Below, piece by piece: positions 1,307-20,111 of a DNA stretch of 40,133 bases. Location of the stretch: the IMG/VR virus record IMGVR_UViG_2778261168_000005; one strand, written 5' to 3'. Both the position numbers and the translations under genes were made by a program. The notes beneath the pieces were generated by a model that was given only the letters and a program-made list of their open reading frames with translations, had not been told where the DNA came from and did not search any database. Position 1 is the first letter of the stretch, and each line of letters begins with the position of its first letter. Origin of the DNA: a virus (taxonomy: Duplodnaviria; Heunggongvirae; Uroviricota; Caudoviricetes).

Positions 1307-3787
1307 TTAAAAATCAGCCTGACTCGGGATCAGTTTTTGTATCGTAGCTGTAACGTATTTTGCCTGGTGACGGGCGTCATCCAGTGCATTGTGGCGCACG
1401 CCTTCGAATGGAATAACGGTTCTGGCATCAAAGTCGATTGTTTTTCCCAGCTCAACGATTGTGCGTACATCGCGATCGTTGTGGTAGCTCCACGGGCAGG
1501 GGATGTCCAGACGTTCGTATGAGGTGCGCAAAATTGCGTTATCGAAAGTTGCACCATTACCCCATACCTGAACGAATTTTTCATCTGAGTATTCGTTGAT
1601 GAACTCCCGAAACTGCGAAAGGGCATCCTTCAGTTTTACCTGGTCTGTTAAAATGGCAGCTCTGGCTTCACTGGACTGCTTCAGCCACCATTCGATGGTT
1701 CCACCGTCAGGAACAGCCCCTGTATTCATTGCGTCAGTCAGACTGATAACGATATAAAATACTGGCCCGATTTCCCCTGTTTGTGGGTCGAAGAAAACCG
1801 CACCAATAACCACGATGGGCGCATTGGTGTTGGTTCCCATTGTTTCAAGGTCGATCATCAGGTGGTACCACACTCTGCTGGTGGATGTGATAACGTGATG
1901 ACCGTTCACCGCAATTAAGGGATCTGCCGTCTCGCCAGTTTCATTATCGCTGGCGTGGTCCTGAGCGCTGCCAGCATTCTCCTTGTGTGGATGTTCAGCG
2001 CCTTCCATTTCCTCCGGATCATTTTCCTGAACTTCAACCTGATTCTCTTCATCGAATGTTTCCTGATATGTTGCGTCGCCCATCACCGCACCACAATCAG
2101 GGCAGTTGCCGCCACCGATCTGACCGCAGGCGGTGCAGACTTTTTCCGCTTCCTGTTGCGCTACCGGTTCGGATTGTTTCGTTTCTGGCTCGTTTTGTAA
2201 CGCATTTTGGCTGTTTTGTTCCGCTTTCTGGTTGTTCTGTTCCGTTTCTTGCTGGTTCTGGTTCACAGAATCGCGGGTTTCAATCCCCTTCACCCATTTC
2301 GGATCATTCGGGTCGCTAATCCCTGCAACAAATTCTCCGCGAGAGGCAGCAAGCAGTTCATTAGCGTCAGGCTGGCTGATATTGGCTGCCTGCATAATTT
2401 TGTTTACTTCGTCAGCGGTAACTTTTACCGGCTCTGGTTGTGCGGTCGTGTCAGATGCACCAGTATTTTGTTGTGAGCCTGAGTATGTACCGTTTTTGCG
2501 GGCAAAATATTCTTCTTTCGTGATTTCAGTAGCCCCTGCAGCCAGCGCCTTATTCAGACCAGAAAGTTTGTTTGCACGACCATATTTTTCGCCATCCTTA
2601 TCGGTGAAAAGGAAGTAGAACGGCCCCTCACGCTCTACAGATGGTTCAGTTTCCAGCGTGTTTTCATTTTTTTGGGTATCAGATACTTCAGTTTCCACTG
2701 CATCAGTTTGTACTGCTGACGGCTGGAGAATATCAGCAGTGTTCTGGTCTGTTTCTTCATCCTCAAACACGCCCTTTGTCGCCAGGTATTCAGTGATGTA
2801 TTTGTTCAGTGCTACGGGATCTTTGTGAATGTCGATCGGACGCTCACGGACAAGGCCAAAAATAGTCTGACGGTCGTAGCGAACGGCATCGGGTTGTTTG
2901 CGCATAGATGCGGAAATGCGCTTCCAGTCTTCGCGATCTTTGTCGATAACTTCATTTTTTGCCCAGCGATGGATGCTGCCGTCAATGTTTCCGGCATTAA
3001 TATCGCCAGGCCACAGAGCGTAGGCCAGTTCTTCATCCAGCGTTTTCCATGTCTGCTTGTATTCGCGATGAATGGCGGCAGTGGCGGGGTTGATTTTTCC
3101 TGCTGAGTTTTCAGTGTGCTGCCGGTTGACTCTGGCGCGGGCAAGATCAACAACAGACGTGTATTTCCCGGTTTCTTTGCGTTCGGTTTCGCGACGTTTT
3201 TTCCAGGTGCGTAATTCTGTCTGGATCTCAGGCCATTTTGCACCCGGCTTACATTTATGTTTAACCCACCCGATGGCGAGCAGCTTTAGTTCTGAATACA
3301 TGACGTTAACTTCAGGCATTTTCATCAATGCCTCAACGATATGCCCGTCGAATGTTGCCATGTCCTCCTGCAACAATTCCTGTGCACTAATCACCATATC
3401 AACGGTGATGTTTTCACATGTACCGAACTTAACCAGGACCGCGTTCTGTACTTCAAGGGACAGCTTGTCAAAATTGACGTTCATCGGATCGGATTCTGGT
3501 TCGACCGGGACAAAGGAAGCGCCTTCCTCATCCCAGCGGTTTTCCAGCATATATTCGGTATCCCAGGAGTCGATGGCAGGGCGGGGCATGCCGGGTTTAT
3601 CCTCGCAGACAAGAAATTTATAAGCGCAGTCCTGAGCAGCCGGATATTGCTCCAGGAATTGCCAGGTAAATTTGGCACGGGCGCGACGTTCGTCGCCGGC
3701 TTCAATGGCAGTGGCTACAGCGACTGCACCTTCTTTCTTTATTGCCTGTTCGTCCGGAATGGCGGCGCAAATAAAGACTTTACTCAT
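1307..3787 (-). CDS. phage exonuclease, RecE-like central region with C-terminal DEDDh-type 3'-5' exonuclease domain
   Basis: 826-aa ORF; SD GAGG about 10 nt upstream of ATG. C-terminal 170 aa carry DnaQ-like motifs (MIDLETMG..., ...[13 protein letters not shown]); a central stretch ([29 protein letters not shown]) resembles exodeoxyribonuclease VIII as I recall it. Confidence 0.7.
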
Positions 3788-12068: not shown

Positions 12069-12155
12069 CGTAATTACTAATCCGGGGCTATATTTCCGGC
12101 GCGCCAGCAAAATCTGGCGTCGGGATTGGCGTCCCGGATGTTTACGGAGCGATAT

Positions 12156-12178
12156 GAGACGCGCCCGCGTCTTTTTTC
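12156..12178 (+). terminator. intrinsic terminator
   Basis: GAGACGCG-CCC-GCGTCT hairpin followed by TTTTTT. Confidence 0.5.
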
Positions 12179-12340
12179 ATATCGTTTGCACAGTCACATT
12201 CGCGATTTATGGCGGGCTGTGTGGGGGAGCCGAAAGGCTCGCCGGTTTCCGTACCCGGTTACGCCAACCCTGCACAGTTCGCCACCAGTTCGATTGGCGT
12301 CGTTGGTGGCGATAATTTCCAAATGTACGGAGTTATCGTT

Positions 12341-12918: not shown

Positions 12919-13101
12919 ATATCGGGTGAACATTGCCACCGGAGATAAAATAATTTGCGGTGAAAGGGAAGTTAAGTAGAATTGCTGCGGGTGCTTGAGG
13001 CTATCTGCCTCAGGCATGAACACCAAAAGGCAGATAGAGAAAAGCCCCAGTTAACATTACGCGTCCTGCAAGACGCTTAACATTAATCTGAGGCCATATC
13101 T

Positions 13102-13161
13102 ATGCGACACATAGAGATTAGCCTCTTACGGACCGAAAGGTCAAGGAGAAGCAGGCTATGA
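13102..13161 (+). CDS. short leader ORF translationally coupled to hok (mok-like)
   Basis: 19-codon ORF whose stop (TGA) overlaps the hok ATG (ATGA); known hok loci have an overlapping mok frame. Confidence 0.35.
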   Translation: MRHIEISLLRTERSRRSRL

Positions 13162-15340: not shown

Positions 15341-15700
15341 ATGCGTATAGAGTTTGTTTTGCCTTACCCGCCGACGGTGAACACCTACTGGCGTCGTCGT
15401 GGCAGCACATATTTTGTATCAAAAGCCGGTGAGCGTTATCGCCGTGATGTGGCGCTTATTGTTCGCCAGCAGCGACTGAAATTAAACCTGTCCGGAAGGC
15501 TGGCGATAAAGATCATTGCAGAGCCGCCGAATAAGCGCCGTCGTGACCTGGACAATATTCTGAAAGCACCAATGGATGCACTGACACATGCGGGGTTGCT
15601 TATCGACGACGAGCAGTTTGATGAAATTAATATTGTGCGCGGTCAGGTCGTTCCTGGTGGTCGGTTGGGGATAAAAATCACAGGGCTGGAGTGCGCATGA
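15341..15700 (+). CDS. rusA: Holliday junction resolvase RusA
   Basis: 119 aa; matches RusA pattern (PPTVNTYWRRRG..., KRRRDLDNILKAPMDALTHAGLLIDDEQ, GGRLGIKITGLE). Confidence 0.85.
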   Translation: MRIEFVLPYPPTVNTYWRRRGSTYFVSKAGERYRRDVALIVRQQRLKLNLSGRLAIKIIAEPPNKRRRDLDNILKAPMDALTHAGLLIDDEQFDEINIVRGQVVPGGRLGIKITGLECA

Positions 15701-16386
15701 ATAACCAGTATTTACAGTTTGTTCGTGAGCAGCTCATTATCGCCACCGCCGATTTGAGTGGGGCAACAAAAGGTCAGCTTGAAGCCTGGCAGGAGAATGC
15801 CATGTTCGATACAGGGCGTTACAGGCGTAAAAAAATCCGGTACCGCGATGAAGTGACTGGAAAAATGATCACGCGGGATAATCCACCAATCCCGGGGAAA
15901 CAATCGCTGGCGAAGGGGACGTCAATTCCTCTGGTAAGTCAGGTTGAGTTTTCGACATCCTCATGGCGACGGGCTGTTCTGTCTCTTGAAGAACCTCATA
16001 AAACCTGGTTGTTGTGGTGTTACAGCGGAAATATTTGCTGGGAGTATCAGGTCACCATAACCCGCTGGGCATGGGAAGAGTTTAAGGCTCATTCTGGCAA
16101 CAGGAAAATTGCAGAGAAGACACGGGAACGCCTGAAAAAATTAATCTGGCTGGCGGCGCAGGCAGTAAAAGCAGAACTTTTTGGCGGGGAAGGTTATGAA
16201 TACCAGGATCTGGCATTACTGGCGGGAGTGACAACTAAAAACTGGTCCAAAACATTTACTGGTCACTGGGTTGCAATGAAACACATTTTCCACCAGCTGG
16301 ATAGTGAGGCTTTATTGTTGGTAATGAGGACGCGTTCGGAACAAAAGGCGGCATTTTCAAAGCAAAGTATTGCAAAAGTAGATTAA
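15697..16386 (+). CDS. putative late-gene antiterminator (Q-like)
   Basis: 229 aa from ATG 15697 overlapping rusA stop (ATGA), SD GGAG; sits between rusA and a strong promoter plus terminator. Assignment by synteny, not recognised sequence. Confidence 0.45.
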   Translation: MNNQYLQFVREQLIIATADLSGATKGQLEAWQENAMFDTGRYRRKKIRYRDEVTGKMITRDNPPIPGKQSLAKGTSIPLVSQVEFSTSSWRRAVLSLEEPHKTWLLWCYSGNICWEYQVTITRWAWEEFKAHSGNRKIAEKTRERLKKLIWLAAQAVKAELFGGEGYEYQDLALLAGVTTKNWSKTFTGHWVAMKHIFHQLDSEALLLVMRTRSEQKAAFSKQSIAKVD

Positions 16387-16398
16387 AAAGCATATATT
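16370..16398 (+). promoter_or_regulatory. strong sigma70-type promoter (TTGCAA-N17-TATATT), late-promoter candidate
   Basis: -35 TTGCAA 16370-16375, 17-nt spacer, -10 TATATT 16393-16398; overlaps the Q-like stop; terminator about 50 nt downstream. Confidence 0.5.
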
Positions 16399-16452
16399 TC
16401 ATGCAAATCTGATATTTTGCCGATTTTGTACGCGATGGCAAAGTAAGCAAAA

Positions 16453-16474
16453 CCCGCCGCCTGGCGGGTTTTTT
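16453..16474 (+). terminator. intrinsic terminator (late-terminator candidate)
   Basis: CCCGCC-GCCT-GGCGGG followed by TTTTTT. Confidence 0.7.
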
Positions 16475-16617
16475 GCGCCCAAAAAGCGGCACAGGACGTT
16501 AAACGCGCTGGTGGTTGCGGATACGAGGCTTTCAGCTTGCTGGCTTTTTCGACAAGAGTTATTGGTATGTCACGTTAACCAGAAAAGGGAAAACACACCA
16601 CTGGTTCGAGGCCATGT

Positions 16618-16929
16618 ATGTATCACAGAAGAGACTTACTTAGTGAATATAAAGAGCTGCGCCAGTATTTTTGTGTGCTAGTGTTATTACCGTACACTGA
16701 TATGTGGACGAATAAGCCAGATCAATTTTACCCGGGTAAGTATTCTTGTGAAAAAACATCCGTAATTTGTGCTGGTAGTCATTCAGTGGACCTGGTAGCG
16801 GATTTCTTCATTGGTTCAGGCTCAGTCATAAAAGCTGTTATGGCGTCAGGGAGTTGTGCGACGGGCGCTGAACAGAAAGCTGAGAGTTTTCAGAATATAA
16901 TGCAGTACATCAGTGATCATTTCGGGTAG
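16618..16929 (+). CDS. hypothetical protein (cargo gene)
   Basis: 103-aa ORF, SD GAGG 7 nt upstream; no recognisable family. Confidence 0.45.
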   Translation: MYHRRDLLSEYKELRQYFCVLVLLPYTDMWTNKPDQFYPGKYSCEKTSVICAGSHSVDLVADFFIGSGSVIKAVMASGSCATGAEQKAESFQNIMQYISDHFG

Positions 16930-17157
16930 AGATAAAATATTAAGTAAGTCACAATTTTGTCGATTAATAATTGTTTTATTTAAGTGCGATTTGTTAAAAA
17001 GTTACAGCATGGTGAATCCCCCTCAGCGGCGGGGCATAATGACCGTCAGGTTGGGTTGCATTAGCGATAGTAGCAAGCAGCGGATTCTGTCTGGTCATTG
17101 CAGAATTCACCGGGAGGCACCCGGCACTATGACAATGATGGTAGTAAATGCGTATAC

Positions 17158-17185
17158 AAGCCCCTCATCCTGAGGGGCTTTTTTA
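17158..17185 (+). terminator. intrinsic terminator
   Basis: GCCCCTCA-TCC-TGAGGGGC followed by TTTTTT. Confidence 0.6.
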
Positions 17186-17230
17186 TTATGTGTGGTGAGT
17201 CTGAGGGGGGATGAATCAACTCATATGCTG

Positions 17231-17560
17231 TCATTTATATAATCCATACGGACATATTGTCAGCATACACTGGTTGTTGGGGCATATACTTTTTGTTTTT
17301 ACTGATTTTCCCGGGCAATCTTTGTTGTTTTTGATGAGGTACCAGAATCTCTTGTTAAATGGAGTTACGTTGTAAATTGTTAATGGAATTTGTTTATTAT
17401 TCATGATGATACCGGAATTAATCGGTGTGAAAGTGCTTCCCGGTGGCAGGAATACATCTGACTGATACCAGAGTATCAATTTTATTTTATTCCATACTGT
17501 AGAAAACGTTATTCCACTTGATGAGCATATAACAGTGTCAATCACTATCCATTCCATCAT
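17231..17560 (-). CDS. hypothetical protein in AT-rich island
   Basis: 109-aa ORF, SD GAAGG about 9 nt upstream; local GC clearly lower than flanks (by eye); candidate -10 TATACT upstream. Confidence 0.4.
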   Translation of the reverse strand: MMEWIVIDTVICSSSGITFSTVWNKIKLILWYQSDVFLPPGSTFTPINSGIIMNNKQIPLTIYNVTPFNKRFWYLIKNNKDCPGKSVKTKSICPNNQCMLTICPYGLYK

Positions 17561-17782
17561 TTTCAGCCTTCTGGATGCATATTACCGTTTAAAAAGTATA
17601 GCTCGTCATGGCTGTAACTCATTGAAAAAGATCATTTTATTTATCTTTTGGTGGAATCCCTTTGGTGTGACGCCTTCGGTATGAGACGATAATAAGTCAG
17701 AACGCCTGGCACGAGCCGTAAAGGATATTAGGGGGGGGCTGAACTGACACAGTGCACAGGGAAAGAGCGCACAACCCCAGGA

Positions 17783-18001
17783 GTGCTTGTGGAGAGTTAC
17801 GGTGGAGATTTTGTATTTCCTGGCAGGGTCGGTGATGCATCATTCTGGTGTTGTAAACGCGTTGCAGAGGCGTTCCTCAGGGCGAAGGTGATTAAGAGTT
17901 GGTTTAGTGGGAAATCACAGTATCCATACAGGACGGAATACTTCGTGAGGTGCTCGACGCCCAGGTTTTATAACAATCAAAAAATTCATCTCTTGCATTG
18001 A
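17783..18001 (+). CDS. hypothetical protein
   Basis: 72-aa ORF, no clear SD; followed by a T8 run at about 18016-18023. Confidence 0.3.
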   Translation: MLVESYGGDFVFPGRVGDASFWCCKRVAEAFLRAKVIKSWFSGKSQYPYRTEYFVRCSTPRFYNNQKIHLLH

Positions 18002-18201
18002 CCAACCTTCTTCATGGCGGTTTTTTTTGGGGAATTGATTGAATTGCATACTGAATAATCATTGCATCGTTAAAATTATAACTAATTCCGAATATGCTGT
18101 GCTTGCTTATTGTTAGCTTGCTTACATTTCTGTATTTTGCTGCACCGCAGGTTTCCCCTGTAACGACGATTGTATGATTAATCATTTAAACTTTGTCATT
18201 T

Positions 18202-18232
18202 GCCAGCCAGTCTCTGGTGGCTGGCTTTTTTT
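18202..18232 (+). terminator. intrinsic terminator
   Basis: GCCAGCCA ... TGGCTGGC 8-bp stem followed by TTTTTTT. Confidence 0.55.
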
Positions 18233-18285
18233 GCAAGGTGTTCCAGTAATTCTGTCGTCAGGCTGGATTCCCACAGAACAAAAAA

Positions 18286-18367
18286 CCGTCACTAACTCAT
18301 CGGGTAAGAGTGCATAACACGTATTGTTGTTTTGTGGTGCGGGGTTCGAGTCCACGGTGACGGTCCA
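18286..18367 (+). tRNA. tRNA-like element, probably a degenerate tRNA pseudogene
   Basis: Hand-folded: 7/7 acceptor stem (CCGTCAC / GTGACGG), U8, 4-bp D-stem with A14, G18G19, A21, T-arm CGGGG-TTCGAGT-CCACG, then T and CCA; but 27 nt lie between D- and T-arms (22 expected) and no canonical anticodon loop can be drawn. Terminator follows. Confidence 0.35.
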
Positions 18368-18394
18368 TTTGTAACGGTAAATATACTTTTAACA

Positions 18395-18416
18395 GGCTCG
18401 CTTCGGCGAGCTTTTT
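18395..18416 (+). terminator. intrinsic terminator after the tRNA-like element
   Basis: GCTCGC-TTCG-GCGAGC followed by TTTTT. Confidence 0.6.
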
Positions 18417-18862
18417 GTATGAGTTCAACCCGGTTTATATTGGCGAAAAAAGGGCGCGGCTGTCGGATTAAAGCCGCGGGACAAAGTCCATGAAGAAGAA
18501 TAAGCATCTCTCTCCTCCAGAGAGACGTATTTATATTACTAAGCATTAAAAATGGTTTAAATCCTCAGATTAACCTTAATTTCAGGTAAGTCTAATTTCA
18601 TTTCTTTGCGCCACGTCCGGCGCACATCAAAAACCACAGAGCCTTTCAGGGGTGAGCTTACGGCATGGTCAGTGTGACTTTTTCTTTGGGCTGGCCCCCC
18701 GGGCGGAGGCTCATCCACCAAAAGGAAACGTCACTGATGTCGGTGCTGGCAGATGGTGTGCTGGTGGCAATGGCGCTGGTCGTCCTCCTGCCTTTACTGC
18801 GCAAATCTGAATAGCACCACGCAAAAGGCATCTGCGGGTGCCTTTGACGGGGTGTTTTTTAC

Positions 18863-18884
18863 GGGCCGCTGGTGGCCCTTTTTT
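18863..18884 (+). terminator. intrinsic terminator upstream of the lysis genes
   Basis: GGGCC-GCTGGT-GGCCC followed by TTTTTT; a second hairpin (AAGGCA...TGCCTT) lies at 18825-18844. Confidence 0.5.
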
Positions 18885-18903
18885 ATTTACAGGAGAATAA
18901 AGT

Positions 18904-19296
18904 ATGTCTGAACCCTTATCCGGTTCCGGCACGGCTGTGGCGCTCGGCGGGGCGACGGTATTCGGGCTGTTTACCGGAACGGATTTCGGGATTGTGTTTG
19001 GTGCATTCGCAGGGGCGTTATTTGTGGCAACGATGCCGCAGGCGCTTTCAGCCTGGCGTGTGGCGGCGCATTTTCTGGTGTCGTTCATTATCGGCGTACT
19101 GGGCGCAGAGGTTCTGGCATCCTGGCTGGTAAAGCATACAGAGTTTGACGGTGCACCTGTCGACGCATTGTGTGCAGTACTGGTGTCAGTGGTGTCGGTG
19201 AAGATTCTCTCGTTCATCCACCAGCAGGATATTGCATCGCTGGTGTCCGGCCTGTTCTCCCGCCTGCGGGGTGGAGGAGGCGGCAATGTTAAGTAA
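18904..19296 (+). CDS. putative holin (membrane protein)
   Basis: 130-aa ORF, SD AGGAG; Gly/Ala-rich hydrophobic segments; first gene of the lysis cluster, before the muramidase. Confidence 0.45.
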   Translation: MSEPLSGSGTAVALGGATVFGLFTGTDFGIVFGAFAGALFVATMPQALSAWRVAAHFLVSFIIGVLGAEVLASWLVKHTEFDGAPVDALCAVLVSVVSVKILSFIHQQDIASLVSGLFSRLRGGGGGNVK

Positions 19297-19564
19297 CCTT
19301 CCCGGATTACTGAATGTGGCGTTATGCACGGTTATCGTGCTGACGCTCTTTTTTTATCGTCGCCGTGATTCCAGACATAAACCGCTGATGTCATGGCTGG
19401 CCTGGCTACTGATGCTGCTTTATGCCTTTGCGCCCCTCAGCTATCTGTGTGGTCGCCCGTTAGCGGCGAACTGGCTGGCGGTGGGGCTTAATCTGCTGTT
19501 CTGCGTGTTGGTGATTCGCGCACGCGGGAACGTTTCAAAAATCTTTGTATTACGAAGGCGCTGA
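19286..19564 (+). CDS. membrane protein, possible second holin/antiholin component
   Basis: 92 aa from ATG 19286 (SD GGAGGAGG); several hydrophobic stretches; overlaps previous stop. Confidence 0.4.
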   Translation: MLSNLPGLLNVALCTVIVLTLFFYRRRDSRHKPLMSWLAWLLMLLYAFAPLSYLCGRPLAANWLAVGLNLLFCVLVIRARGNVSKIFVLRRR

Positions 19565-19565
19565 T

Positions 19566-20111
19566 ATGAAGTCGAAAGATGAAATTTTTGACGAAGTTCT
19601 GGGAAAAGAGGGCGGTTACGTCAATCACCCGGATGATAAAGGCGGACCGACAAAATGGGGTATTACTGAAAAAGTTGCCCGTGCGCACGGATACCAGGGC
19701 GATATGCGTGATCTGACGCGCGGACAGGCGCTGGAAATACTCGAGGCGGACTACTGGTATGGACCACGTTTTGACCAGGTGGCAGCGTTATCCCCTGATA
19801 TTGCCGCAGAGTTGTGTGATACGGGCGTGAACATGGGGCCAACCGTGGCGTCAAAAATGCTTCAACGCTGGCTTAACGTTTTCAACCTGCGCGGGAAACT
19901 GTATCCGGATATGGATGCTGATGGACGCATCGGGCCGCGTACTCTTAATGCGCTACGGGCATATATGAAAAATCGTGGCAGGGATGGCGAACTGGTCTTA
20001 CTAACCGCGCTGAACTGTACGCAGGGTGACCGTTATCTGGAGCTGGCAGAGAAACGCGAGGCCAACGAGTCGTTTGTCTATGGCTGGATGAAAGAACGCG
20101 TGGGAGTGTAG
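19566..20111 (+). CDS. endolysin, glycoside hydrolase family 108-like muramidase with peptidoglycan-binding domain
   Basis: 181 aa from ATG 19566 (SD GAAGG); N-terminal EGGYVNHPDDKGGPTKWGIT motif typical of GH108. Confidence 0.7.
   Translation: MKSKDEIFDEVLGKEGGYVNHPDDKGGPTKWGITEKVARAHGYQGDMRDLTRGQALEILEADYWYGPRFDQVAALSPDIAAELCDTGVNMGPTVASKMLQRWLNVFNLRGKLYPDMDADGRIGPRTLNALRAYMKNRGRDGELVLLTALNCTQGDRYLELAEKREANESFVYGWMKERVGV

Follow-up and report, generated by a model that had tools for sequence, protein, structure and literature searches.

The window, a stretch of viral DNA of 40,133 nucleotides (IMG/VR record IMGVR_UViG_2778261168_000005), is a lambdoid prophage of mouse-associated Escherichia coli, built as a mosaic of E. 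coli phage modules. It looks complete in that it carries terminase, portal and tail genes. Between the gene of its Q antiterminator and its lysis genes lies an AT-rich island in which two intact elements stand on opposite strands: a gene of the IraM/IraL family of RssB anti-adaptors, which runs antisense to the phage late operon, and the small RNA (sRNA) STnc100, which converges with it. The two elements and the region upstream of the gene are located as follows, in positions of the window:

17231 to 17560, minus strand: iraM-family gene (RssB anti-adaptor), assigned by NF007393, identity to K-12 IraM, the structure 8TWD and the ratio of nonsynonymous to synonymous divergence (dN/dS)
17586 to 17649, minus strand: putative iraM promoter region, with a −10 hexamer TATACT at 17600 to 17595, a start near 17588 to 17586 and an upstream block at 17613 to 17649
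16978 to 17190, plus strand: STnc100 sRNA (Rfam RF02076), found by cmscan, with its own terminator at 17158 to 17185

At 42.6%, the G+C content of positions 16400 to 18420 is below that of the whole window (50.1%), of Q (47.4%) and of the lysis genes (54.6%), and it is lowest in the iraM-like open reading frame (ORF), the AT-rich core of the island (34.8%). To the left stands the Q antiterminator (15691 to 16386; PF06323, 298 bits). To the right follow two holins (PF16931 at 18904 to 19296 and PF05449 at 19232 to 19564) and an endolysin-sized ORF (19545 to 20111), with terminase-, portal- and tail-sized ORFs beyond. An earlier sequence-only reading had proposed an AT-rich cargo island at 16400 to 18420, and its base composition and its placement between Q and the holins are borne out. 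The ORFs that it listed are present (16618 to 16929, plus strand, 103 amino acids; 17231 to 17560, minus strand, 109 amino acids; 17783 to 18001, plus strand, 72 amino acids with a GTG start), as is a tRNA-like element (ARAGORN call at 18286 to 18367). All five of its terminators (16453 to 16474, 17158 to 17185, 18202 to 18232, 18395 to 18416 and 18863 to 18884) are likewise there, stably folded and followed by a U run. Its extent needs correction at one end: the features inside are real, but the terminator at 18863 to 18884 lies outside it, and the right border of the island is the start of the holin gene near 18900 (18904), not 18420.

Identity of the iraM-family gene

On sequence grounds, the minus-strand gene is a member of the IraM/IraL family of RssB anti-adaptors and would presumably act as one. 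Its product scores 143.7 bits with the NCBIfam model NF007393 ('anti-adapter protein IraM'), against a cut-off of 121, and covers profile positions 1 to 110 of 114. The protein is 54% identical to K-12 IraM over 106 residues, 61% identical to the protein of the IraL clade and 95% identical to the product of the syntenic, RefSeq-annotated iraM of E. coli M8; iraM is already the RefSeq name of the syntenic genes in the nearest genomes. Among solved structures, chain A of PDB entry 8TWD (IraM) was retrieved with E = 3.1e-30, query residues 2 to 78 aligning to chain residues 4 to 80. A large protein search returned only 27 homologous clusters; every named one is IraM, and all of these are from Escherichia except for one from Cronobacter. 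The likely start is the second ATG of the ORF, at 17557, which gives a protein of 108 amino acids instead of 109.

In the crystal structure, 15 residues of IraM, in clusters I to III and at Pro66, contact RssB (PMC10844676). Nine of the 15 are identical in the window protein and K-12 IraM, three more are conservatively replaced, and 13 are identical to those of the IraL-clade protein (locus L023). Anti-adaptor activity has been demonstrated for IraL of strain CFT073 (PMC4045071). The residues that are invariant in the family, including four C-terminal cysteines, are all kept.

The gene is intact and under purifying selection. Its pairwise dN/dS lies between 0.12 and 0.17 against every relative, the closest included, and at least 24 independent contigs encode the exact window protein, among them one that bears the label mouse gut metagenome. 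The sequence-only reading had recognised no family among the ORFs of the island. That judgement is superseded on two counts, the minus-strand ORF belonging to the IraM/IraL family and the ORF at 16618 to 16929 being the remnant of a DNA methylase. The first of these may have gone unrecognised because PHROGs lists the corresponding family, phrog_4407 (matched with 180 bits), as 'unknown function'.

STnc100 and its convergence with iraM

The sRNA is also complete. Its match to the STnc100 model scores 110.3 bits against a gathering score of 47 and extends untruncated over model positions 1 to 206 of 206, and its terminator folds with −17.1 kcal/mol (z = −4.0). STnc100 is a prophage-encoded sRNA, related to PasD, that Stx phages are reported to carry 75 nt downstream of stx2. 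A promoter scan and an alignment of the region upstream of STnc100 disclosed no convincing sigma70 −10/−35 pair; a TCACAATT...TTGAC block is conserved there.

In the window, 40 nt separate the end of the sRNA match from the stop codon of iraM, compared with 38 nt in E. coli M8, 46 nt in a clade whose proteins are 80% identical to the window protein and 25 nt in the IraL clade. The arrangement is widespread. A scan of IMG/VR found 282 viral contigs with an IraM relative, and 80 loci (L031 to L110) were analysed. At 63 of these 80, STnc100 lies opposite the iraM-family gene, tail to tail, with the nhmmer match starting 38 to 68 nt after the stop codon, and the same pair is found in the window and in L001, L019 and L023. 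The paired loci span five protein clades, with 99, 80, 66, 64–65 and 60–62% identity to the window protein. A 78% clade (17 loci), an E. albertii clade and K-12 iraM are without STnc100. In the linked clades, the first hairpin 3′ of iraM is the complement of the sRNA terminator and has no U run on the iraM strand, whereas the unlinked iraM genes of K-12 and E. albertii possess hairpin terminators of their own. The literature searched contained no paper that names STnc100 together with IraM, IraL or RssB.

Two possible targets of the sRNA were tried and rejected. Pairing in trans with the 5′ untranslated region (UTR) or start codon of iraM gave z values from −0.1 to +1.5 in four clades, and pairing of the 5′ end of STnc100 with the rpoS leader gave z = −0.5.

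In some relatives the pair is split by a mobile element. An IS200/IS605 insertion sequence (IS) carrying an STnc490 RNA sits exactly between the STnc100 terminator and iraM, corresponding to window position 17182 to 17184; such IS200-type insertions are present in L012 to L014 and in L129 (5198 to 5791 in L012; 3980 to 4438 in L129).

Upstream region of iraM

A promoter of its own for the minus-strand ORF had been proposed by the sequence-only reading, and the ORF is indeed a real gene that probably has one. The hexamer TATACT is common to the upstream regions of four iraM clades in an alignment. The transcription start of iraL has been mapped by rapid amplification of 5′ cDNA ends (5′-RACE) to ACATCACC... 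(PMC4045071); in the IraL clade TATACT stands 7 nt upstream of this mapped start and aligns with the TATACT at 17600 to 17595 of the window. By this alignment, the iraM transcript of the window is predicted to start near 17587 with a 5′ UTR of about 30 nt. Further upstream, the 37-nt block at 17613 to 17649 is 92% identical to that of the 80% clade, though synonymous divergence (dS) of the coding sequence between the two is about 1, near saturation. Such conservation suggests that the block is a candidate binding site for a regulator or other protein; it fits neither the Fur nor the PhoP consensus.

In the IraL clade (L023, L055), TGTTTATTGTTTATTTA lies on the opposite strand at about −112 from the start codon and resembles a PhoP box. 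It agrees with 11 of the 12 specified positions of the PhoP-box consensus, a score equalled by 10 to 15 of 300 shuffles. iraL itself has been described as a log-phase, sigma70-dependent gene.

Position, mobility and distribution

Wherever the neighbours of an iraM-family gene are recognisable, the gene lies between Q or RusA and holin or lysozyme and is always antisense to them; in five further iraM clades, too, all copies are antisense in this interval. The Q genes in front of these loci belong to three unrelated families (PF06323, PF03589 and PF06530). The window cassette itself recurs at 95–99% identity behind a PF03589 Q, in L012 with other lysis genes and in L031 with the same M15/holin type. 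Sister prophages (L017, L018 and L030), whose Q and lysis genes are 88–95% identical to those of the window, hold different inserts in the slot, including a tRNA array (Ile-Lys-Thr-Gly in L017), a helix-turn-helix gene with tRNAs, and a MazF toxin gene with a full-length methylase gene. This is textbook moron behaviour, and it upholds the earlier placing of the island in a cargo slot.

A match to the iraM family occurs in 1724 of 5426 complete E. coli genomes (about a third), and the window allele (>95% identity) in four of the 5426; the genomes listed among these four come from mice. Mice are also the source of all three genomes in which most of the island is covered. The allele is found mainly in mouse-gut E. 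coli and mouse-gut metagenomes. None of the 5426 genomes spans 80% or more of the first 25 kb of the window.

Rare-clade copies of iraM may reside more than once in a strain: E. coli M8 (NZ_CP019953.1) contains two different lambdoid prophages, at 1.378 Mb (L001) and 3.095 Mb (L129), each with one. In L002, the element ISEc12 lies inside iraM (3000 to 3155), at the equivalent of window position 17403 to 17410.

Other features of the interval

The rest of the interval, from the late promoter to the holin, contains the following:

16370 to 16398, plus strand: PR′-like late promoter, TTGCAA-17-TATATT, from a promoter scan, overlapping the Q stop codon
16403 to 16474, plus strand: PR′ leader RNA of about 72 nt with tR′, a hairpin at 16449 to 16474 followed by U6 (−18.7 kcal/mol)
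16618 to 16929, plus strand: methylase pseudogene remnant, the C-terminal 101 residues of a 348-amino-acid phage N6-adenine DNA methyltransferase
17783 to 18001, plus strand: chance ORF in non-coding DNA, with the frame broken in relatives and no family match
17998 to 18740, plus strand: conserved non-coding block with terminators at 18202 to 18232 and 18394 to 18416 (−16.5 and −12.8 kcal/mol)
18286 to 18370, plus strand: degenerate tRNA-derived element, called only by ARAGORN, as 'tRNA-Val(aac)', 82 nt
18734 to 18740, no strand: deletion scar at which about 490 bp of the relatives are missing, from blastn to L001, L002, L017 and L018
18737 to 18814, plus strand: truncated DUF3927 (TciB-like) ORF, matching only positions 24 to 48 of 53 of PF13064, and PHROG 1470
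18863 to 18884, plus strand: last hairpin with U run (−10.8 kcal/mol, z = −2.1), the weakest of the five

The ORF at 16618 to 16929 is a remnant of earlier cargo without the catalytic part. It matches positions 174 to 218 of 221 of PF01555 with 25.9 bits, below the cut-off of 26.7, and only the C-terminal part of PHROG 6952 and of the PADLOC model MTase_II. The S-adenosylmethionine motif DFFIGSGS is kept, and the N-terminal 247 amino acids, including DPPY, are absent. To the 3′ ends of the methylase genes of phages SfV, mEp460 and cdtI, which stand directly before the holin, its identity is about 52%. In a tblastn search with the 348-residue methylase of L030, only residues 248 to 348 were recovered, with five residues deleted and the GRRAIGVE motif degraded, and residues 1 to 247 had no counterpart in any frame.

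The ORF at 17783 to 18001, which had been counted as a candidate accessory gene, is by its sequence evolution evidently not a gene. The DNA is 89–93% identical in L001, L002, L012, L014 and L015, and every close relative shows 2- or 4-nt indels and in-frame stops. Gene callers skipped the ORF in eight metagenome contigs, and searches of Pfam, NCBIfam, PHROG and PADLOC found nothing. In L001, 310 bp are inserted at window position 17797 to 17810, and the insert contains two weak tRNA hits. The same four databases gave no match for six further small ORFs of the island, and where such an ORF overlaps STnc100 or the tRNA-like element, the RNA accounts for it.

The block at 17998 to 18740 (740 bp) is 94–96% identical to L017, L018 and L002 and bears no RefSeq annotation there; in related prophages it sits between the tRNA array and TerB. 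In its hairpin at 18202 to 18232, two base pairs differ in a compensatory manner between the E. coli and E. albertii copies (GCCAGC/GCTGGC vs ACCAGT/ACTGGT). Between the block and the holin, the relatives have a TerB-family gene and a 50-amino-acid DUF3927 gene. In the window a microhomology-mediated deletion has taken all of the TerB-family gene along with 72 bp from the start of the DUF3927 gene, the junction alignment placing the scar at a short GATGT repeat. Of the DUF3927 protein, 25 of 50 amino acids are left, hydrophobic in character, with Met26 fused to the ribosome-binding site and ATG of TerB.

Within the block, the element at 18286 to 18370 is read as a degenerate copy of a phage tRNA gene. 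Its 7-bp acceptor stem is perfect, its T loop is canonical and CCA is encoded. It departs from a standard cloverleaf by surplus nucleotides at position 26, ahead of the anticodon stem, and in the variable region, and by C33 where U33 is usual; in the window copy the T stem also contains a G·A mismatch. A search with the Rfam tRNA model gave no match even at E ≤ 1, and RefSeq annotates no such feature in L001, L017 or L018. The acceptor and T arms are identical to those of canonical phage tRNA genes in L111, L121 and L125, whose anticodon loops read as Lys(UUU) and Arg(UCU). The E. albertii homologue (L026, 4280 to 4360) is called Leu(cag), and the E. coli prophages have a GUA-like loop. Compensatory changes occur in the D stem (A-T to G-C) and at one T-stem pair in L002, and the element could accordingly retain some RNA function and be more than a dead remnant; the 12 distinct variants are too uniform within the E. 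coli group to give a meaningful covariation count.

Terminator-like sites are abundant, with 12 between 16000 and 19300 against 3.2 ± 1.9 in shuffles, and the five named hairpins have folding energies of −18.7, −17.1, −16.5, −12.8 and −10.8 kcal/mol. The last of them stands directly before the ribosome-binding site of the holin. The sequence-only reading had listed all five with the cargo island. Two have other owners, as that at 17158 to 17185 belongs to the known sRNA STnc100 and that at 16453 to 16474 is tR′; the PR′–tR′ unit is a standard target of Q and not cargo.

Outside the island, Rfam matches in the early region correspond to a P1/P7-type c4 antisense RNA with a1/b1 target sites and an isrK-like RNA (12088 to 12289) and to the sok antitoxin RNA of a hok/sok module (12989 to 13160).

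The PR′ leader and rpoS

The promoter at 16370 to 16398 is presumed to be PR′ from its place directly after Q. Promoter, transcribed leader of about 45 nt and terminator are conserved in an alignment of phages with the same Q type, and the stem of tR′ covaries among phage variants (CCCGCC/GGCGGG vs ACCACC/GGTGGT). The leader carries a −10-like GATATT at about +10, which is a candidate for a sigma70-dependent pause or Q-loading (qut) site, as well as a weak, sub-threshold isrK-like match in Rfam (24 bits).

In Stx phages, the short PR′–tR′ transcript StxS activates translation of rpoS (PMC7547250). The window leader (16403 to 16448) can form 35 bp of imperfect pairing with positions −85 to −40 of the K-12 rpoS 5′ UTR (L128), with the core AAAUCGGC / GCCGAUUU. 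The duplex energy of −37.9 kcal/mol was equalled by 7 of 2499 random 150-nt background segments, and DsrA, used as positive control, recovered its known rpoS site. Homologous leaders of other phages pair with the same site at −26 to −39 kcal/mol. With intramolecular structure counted, the net energy (ddG) is −9.7 kcal/mol, a value reached by 15 of 150 shuffles and not significant. The pairing is a weak lead, a testable idea and not a finding.

Proposed function and alternatives

The preferred reading, given a probability of roughly 0.8, is that the island is a mosaic moron slot whose present cargo is an STnc100–iraM module for RpoS-raising lysogenic conversion, the rest being debris. In a lysogen the late operon would be off, because transcripts from PR′ would stop at tR′ (16449 to 16474), and iraM would be transcribed from its own promoter with the −10 at 17600 to 17595. 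Its product would bind the adaptor RssB, which then could not hand sigma-S (RpoS) to ClpXP; RpoS would therefore accumulate and the general stress response would rise, which would constitute the lysogenic-conversion trait. The plus-strand terminators (tR′, that of STnc100, and those at 18202 to 18232, 18394 to 18416 and 18863 to 18884) may shield the holin from transcripts of the leader, the sRNA and the tRNA remnant. In the lytic phase none of them would stop Q-modified polymerase, which would transcribe iraM antisense on its way. The methylase 3′ remnant, the degenerate tRNA, the TerB scar and the truncated DUF3927 ORF are left over from earlier cargo.

Several observations weigh against this reading. 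At the protein level, I42T and C14S at RssB contacts differ from both IraM and IraL, a local Pfam scan of the IraM-like ORF gave no match at E ≤ 0.1, and the AlphaFold2 model (mean pLDDT 48.3, pTM 0.44, from an alignment of 19 sequences) is too poor to bear out a PmrD-like beta-barrel fold. At the level of expression, the −10 of the window gene has no properly spaced −35. The spacer of the window clade is 3 nt shorter than that of iraL, and TTACA lies only 12 nt from the −10 and therefore cannot act as a −35. Scans for Fur and PhoP boxes upstream of the gene found nothing above shuffles, and no U-tract terminator for iraM was seen on its own strand. The gene could be weakly expressed or activator-dependent. 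The signal that induces it is probably not that of iraM (PhoP, low Mg2+) or of iraL (log phase), because of the shorter spacer and the lack of an evident −35 and of a PhoP box. Battesti et al. (2012, J Bacteriol) are said to have found that H-NS represses K-12 iraM, and the 34.8% G+C of the window gene would fit silencing by H-NS.

An island made up only of decayed material, with no function selected today, is improbable. The methylase remnant, the frameshift-prone ORF at 17783 to 18001, the degenerate tRNA and the TerB/DUF3927 deletion would all suit it, and IS elements disrupt the module in relatives (ISEc12 in iraM of L002; IS200-type elements in L012 to L014 and L129). However, iraM is intact, identical across the independent contigs and under purifying selection, STnc100 is full length, and the block at 17613 to 17649 is better conserved than the synonymous sites of the coding sequence. 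The decay to mere remnants that the sequence-only reading had itself envisaged is only half borne out: there is much debris, yet two elements are intact and conserved. It is very improbable that the IraM-like protein acts in the manner of PmrD, on PmrA or another host response regulator, and not on RssB. IraM and PmrD have a common fold and both raise the net phosphorylation of their partner (PMC10844676), precomputed Pfam tables assign PF11183 (PmrD) to all homologues of the window protein, and the two altered contact residues would be compatible with another partner. Against this stand 54–61% identity to two proven RssB anti-adaptors, the agreement of 13 of the 15 contact residues with the IraL-clade protein, the passing of the IraM-specific NCBIfam cut-off and a solved-structure search in which IraM (8TWD) came up but no chain of PmrD reached E ≤ 1. 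Scarcely any credit is due to an undescribed anti-phage defence or new accessory protein encoded by 16618 to 16929, 17783 to 18001 or another small ORF, the kind of function for which the sequence-only reading had judged the island the most likely place in the window. The slot between Q and lysis genes frequently harbours defence and toxin genes, a neighbouring variant has a MazF toxin, and PADLOC matches the ORF at 16618 to 16929 to type II methyltransferase models. This fragment, though, comprises only the last 101 of 348 residues without a catalytic motif; it was the sole PADLOC match at E ≤ 0.01, seven other ORFs giving nothing. The second ORF is not conserved as a reading frame, the six small ORFs match no family, and the minus-strand gene falls in an RssB anti-adaptor family.

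Two further proposals concern the relation between the sRNA and its neighbours. It is possible, if doubtful, that STnc100 and iraM form a functional antisense pair whose members limit each other by transcriptional interference or RNase III cleavage. Transcripts of iraM would run into the STnc100 gene, because iraM is without a U-tract terminator, and STnc100 or late read-through would enter iraM. The recurrence of the tail-to-tail arrangement at 63 of 80 loci in five clades speaks for such a pair, as does the sharing of the complement of the STnc100 terminator, without a U run, by the linked clades, where unlinked copies terminate on their own hairpins. On the other hand, simple hitch-hiking in a single old cassette could explain the pairing, the IraL clade contributes many near-identical copies to the 63 loci, no STnc100 accompanies iraM in the 78% clade, the E. 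albertii clade or K-12, and trans pairing with the iraM translation start has z near 0 in four clades. A broader scheme, in which the Q-to-lysis interval would be a dedicated hub of RpoS control combining the antisense IraM anti-adaptor, the convergent STnc100 and the PR′–tR′ leader RNA, is unlikely. Its particulars are unlikely to the same degree, namely that STnc100 would be obligately convergent, that its terminator would double as the end of iraM with mutual regulation, and that a constitutive leader would act like StxS. If it were true, STnc100 would be tied to the RssB/RpoS pathway.

Relation to known systems

With IraM (K-12 b1160) and IraL (CFT073), the window protein shares the family, the length class of 107 to 111 amino acids, the invariant residues and most of the RssB-contact residues; the genes are AT-rich and horizontally acquired, and the −10 is common with the mapped iraL promoter. 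The window gene differs in forming a third, rare allele clade and in residing on an apparently complete prophage instead of a remnant. In K-12, iraM is located some 270 bp past the annotated end of prophage e14, on which the IraL paper places it (PMC4045071). The location of IraL is the potB island; the loci of the IraL clade that were examined are lambdoid prophages. The sRNA resembles STnc100/PasD elsewhere in being full length, terminator-ended and located in the Q-to-lysis region of lambdoid prophages; here, and at most iraM/iraL loci, it differs in being convergent with an anti-adaptor gene.

Like the morons of the Q–S interval (stx, LT-II of the SerU-LTIIb prophage) and bor and lom of lambda, iraM is deviant in base composition and present or absent among similar phages, and it would be an independent transcription unit in the late region, expressed by the prophage to change the host phenotype; the window from 17797 onward matches the record of the LT-IIb prophage. 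In contrast to stx and LT-II, which have the orientation of the late operon and are co-expressed on induction, iraM is always antisense, as expected for a function of lysogeny that is shut off by late transcription. The short PR′–tR′ leader RNA of about 72 nt recalls StxS and may offer a second prophage route to RpoS. Records of Stx2 phages match only the tR′ hairpin and the next 120 nt (85%) and not the leader upstream of tR′, and the predicted pairing of the window leader (−85 to −40) involves a different part of the rpoS leader than StxS does, the comparison being made without the StxS sequence itself.

Significance

The functional content of the island consists of known families. What had not been described is a modest regularity, namely an antisense iraM moron in the Q-to-lysis interval that is usually coupled to STnc100. 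A false lead is removed: the island is no unknown defence locus but has a main gene to which a name and a likely effect on the host can be given, and phrog_4407 can be annotated as the IraM family. The coupling of STnc100 to iraM gives a concrete starting point for the function of this sRNA. For the family, these loci indicate that IraM/IraL anti-adaptors behave as a mobile lambdoid moron with a fixed position and antisense orientation, and for the host, a prophage that raises RpoS would alter stress tolerance and fitness in the gut.

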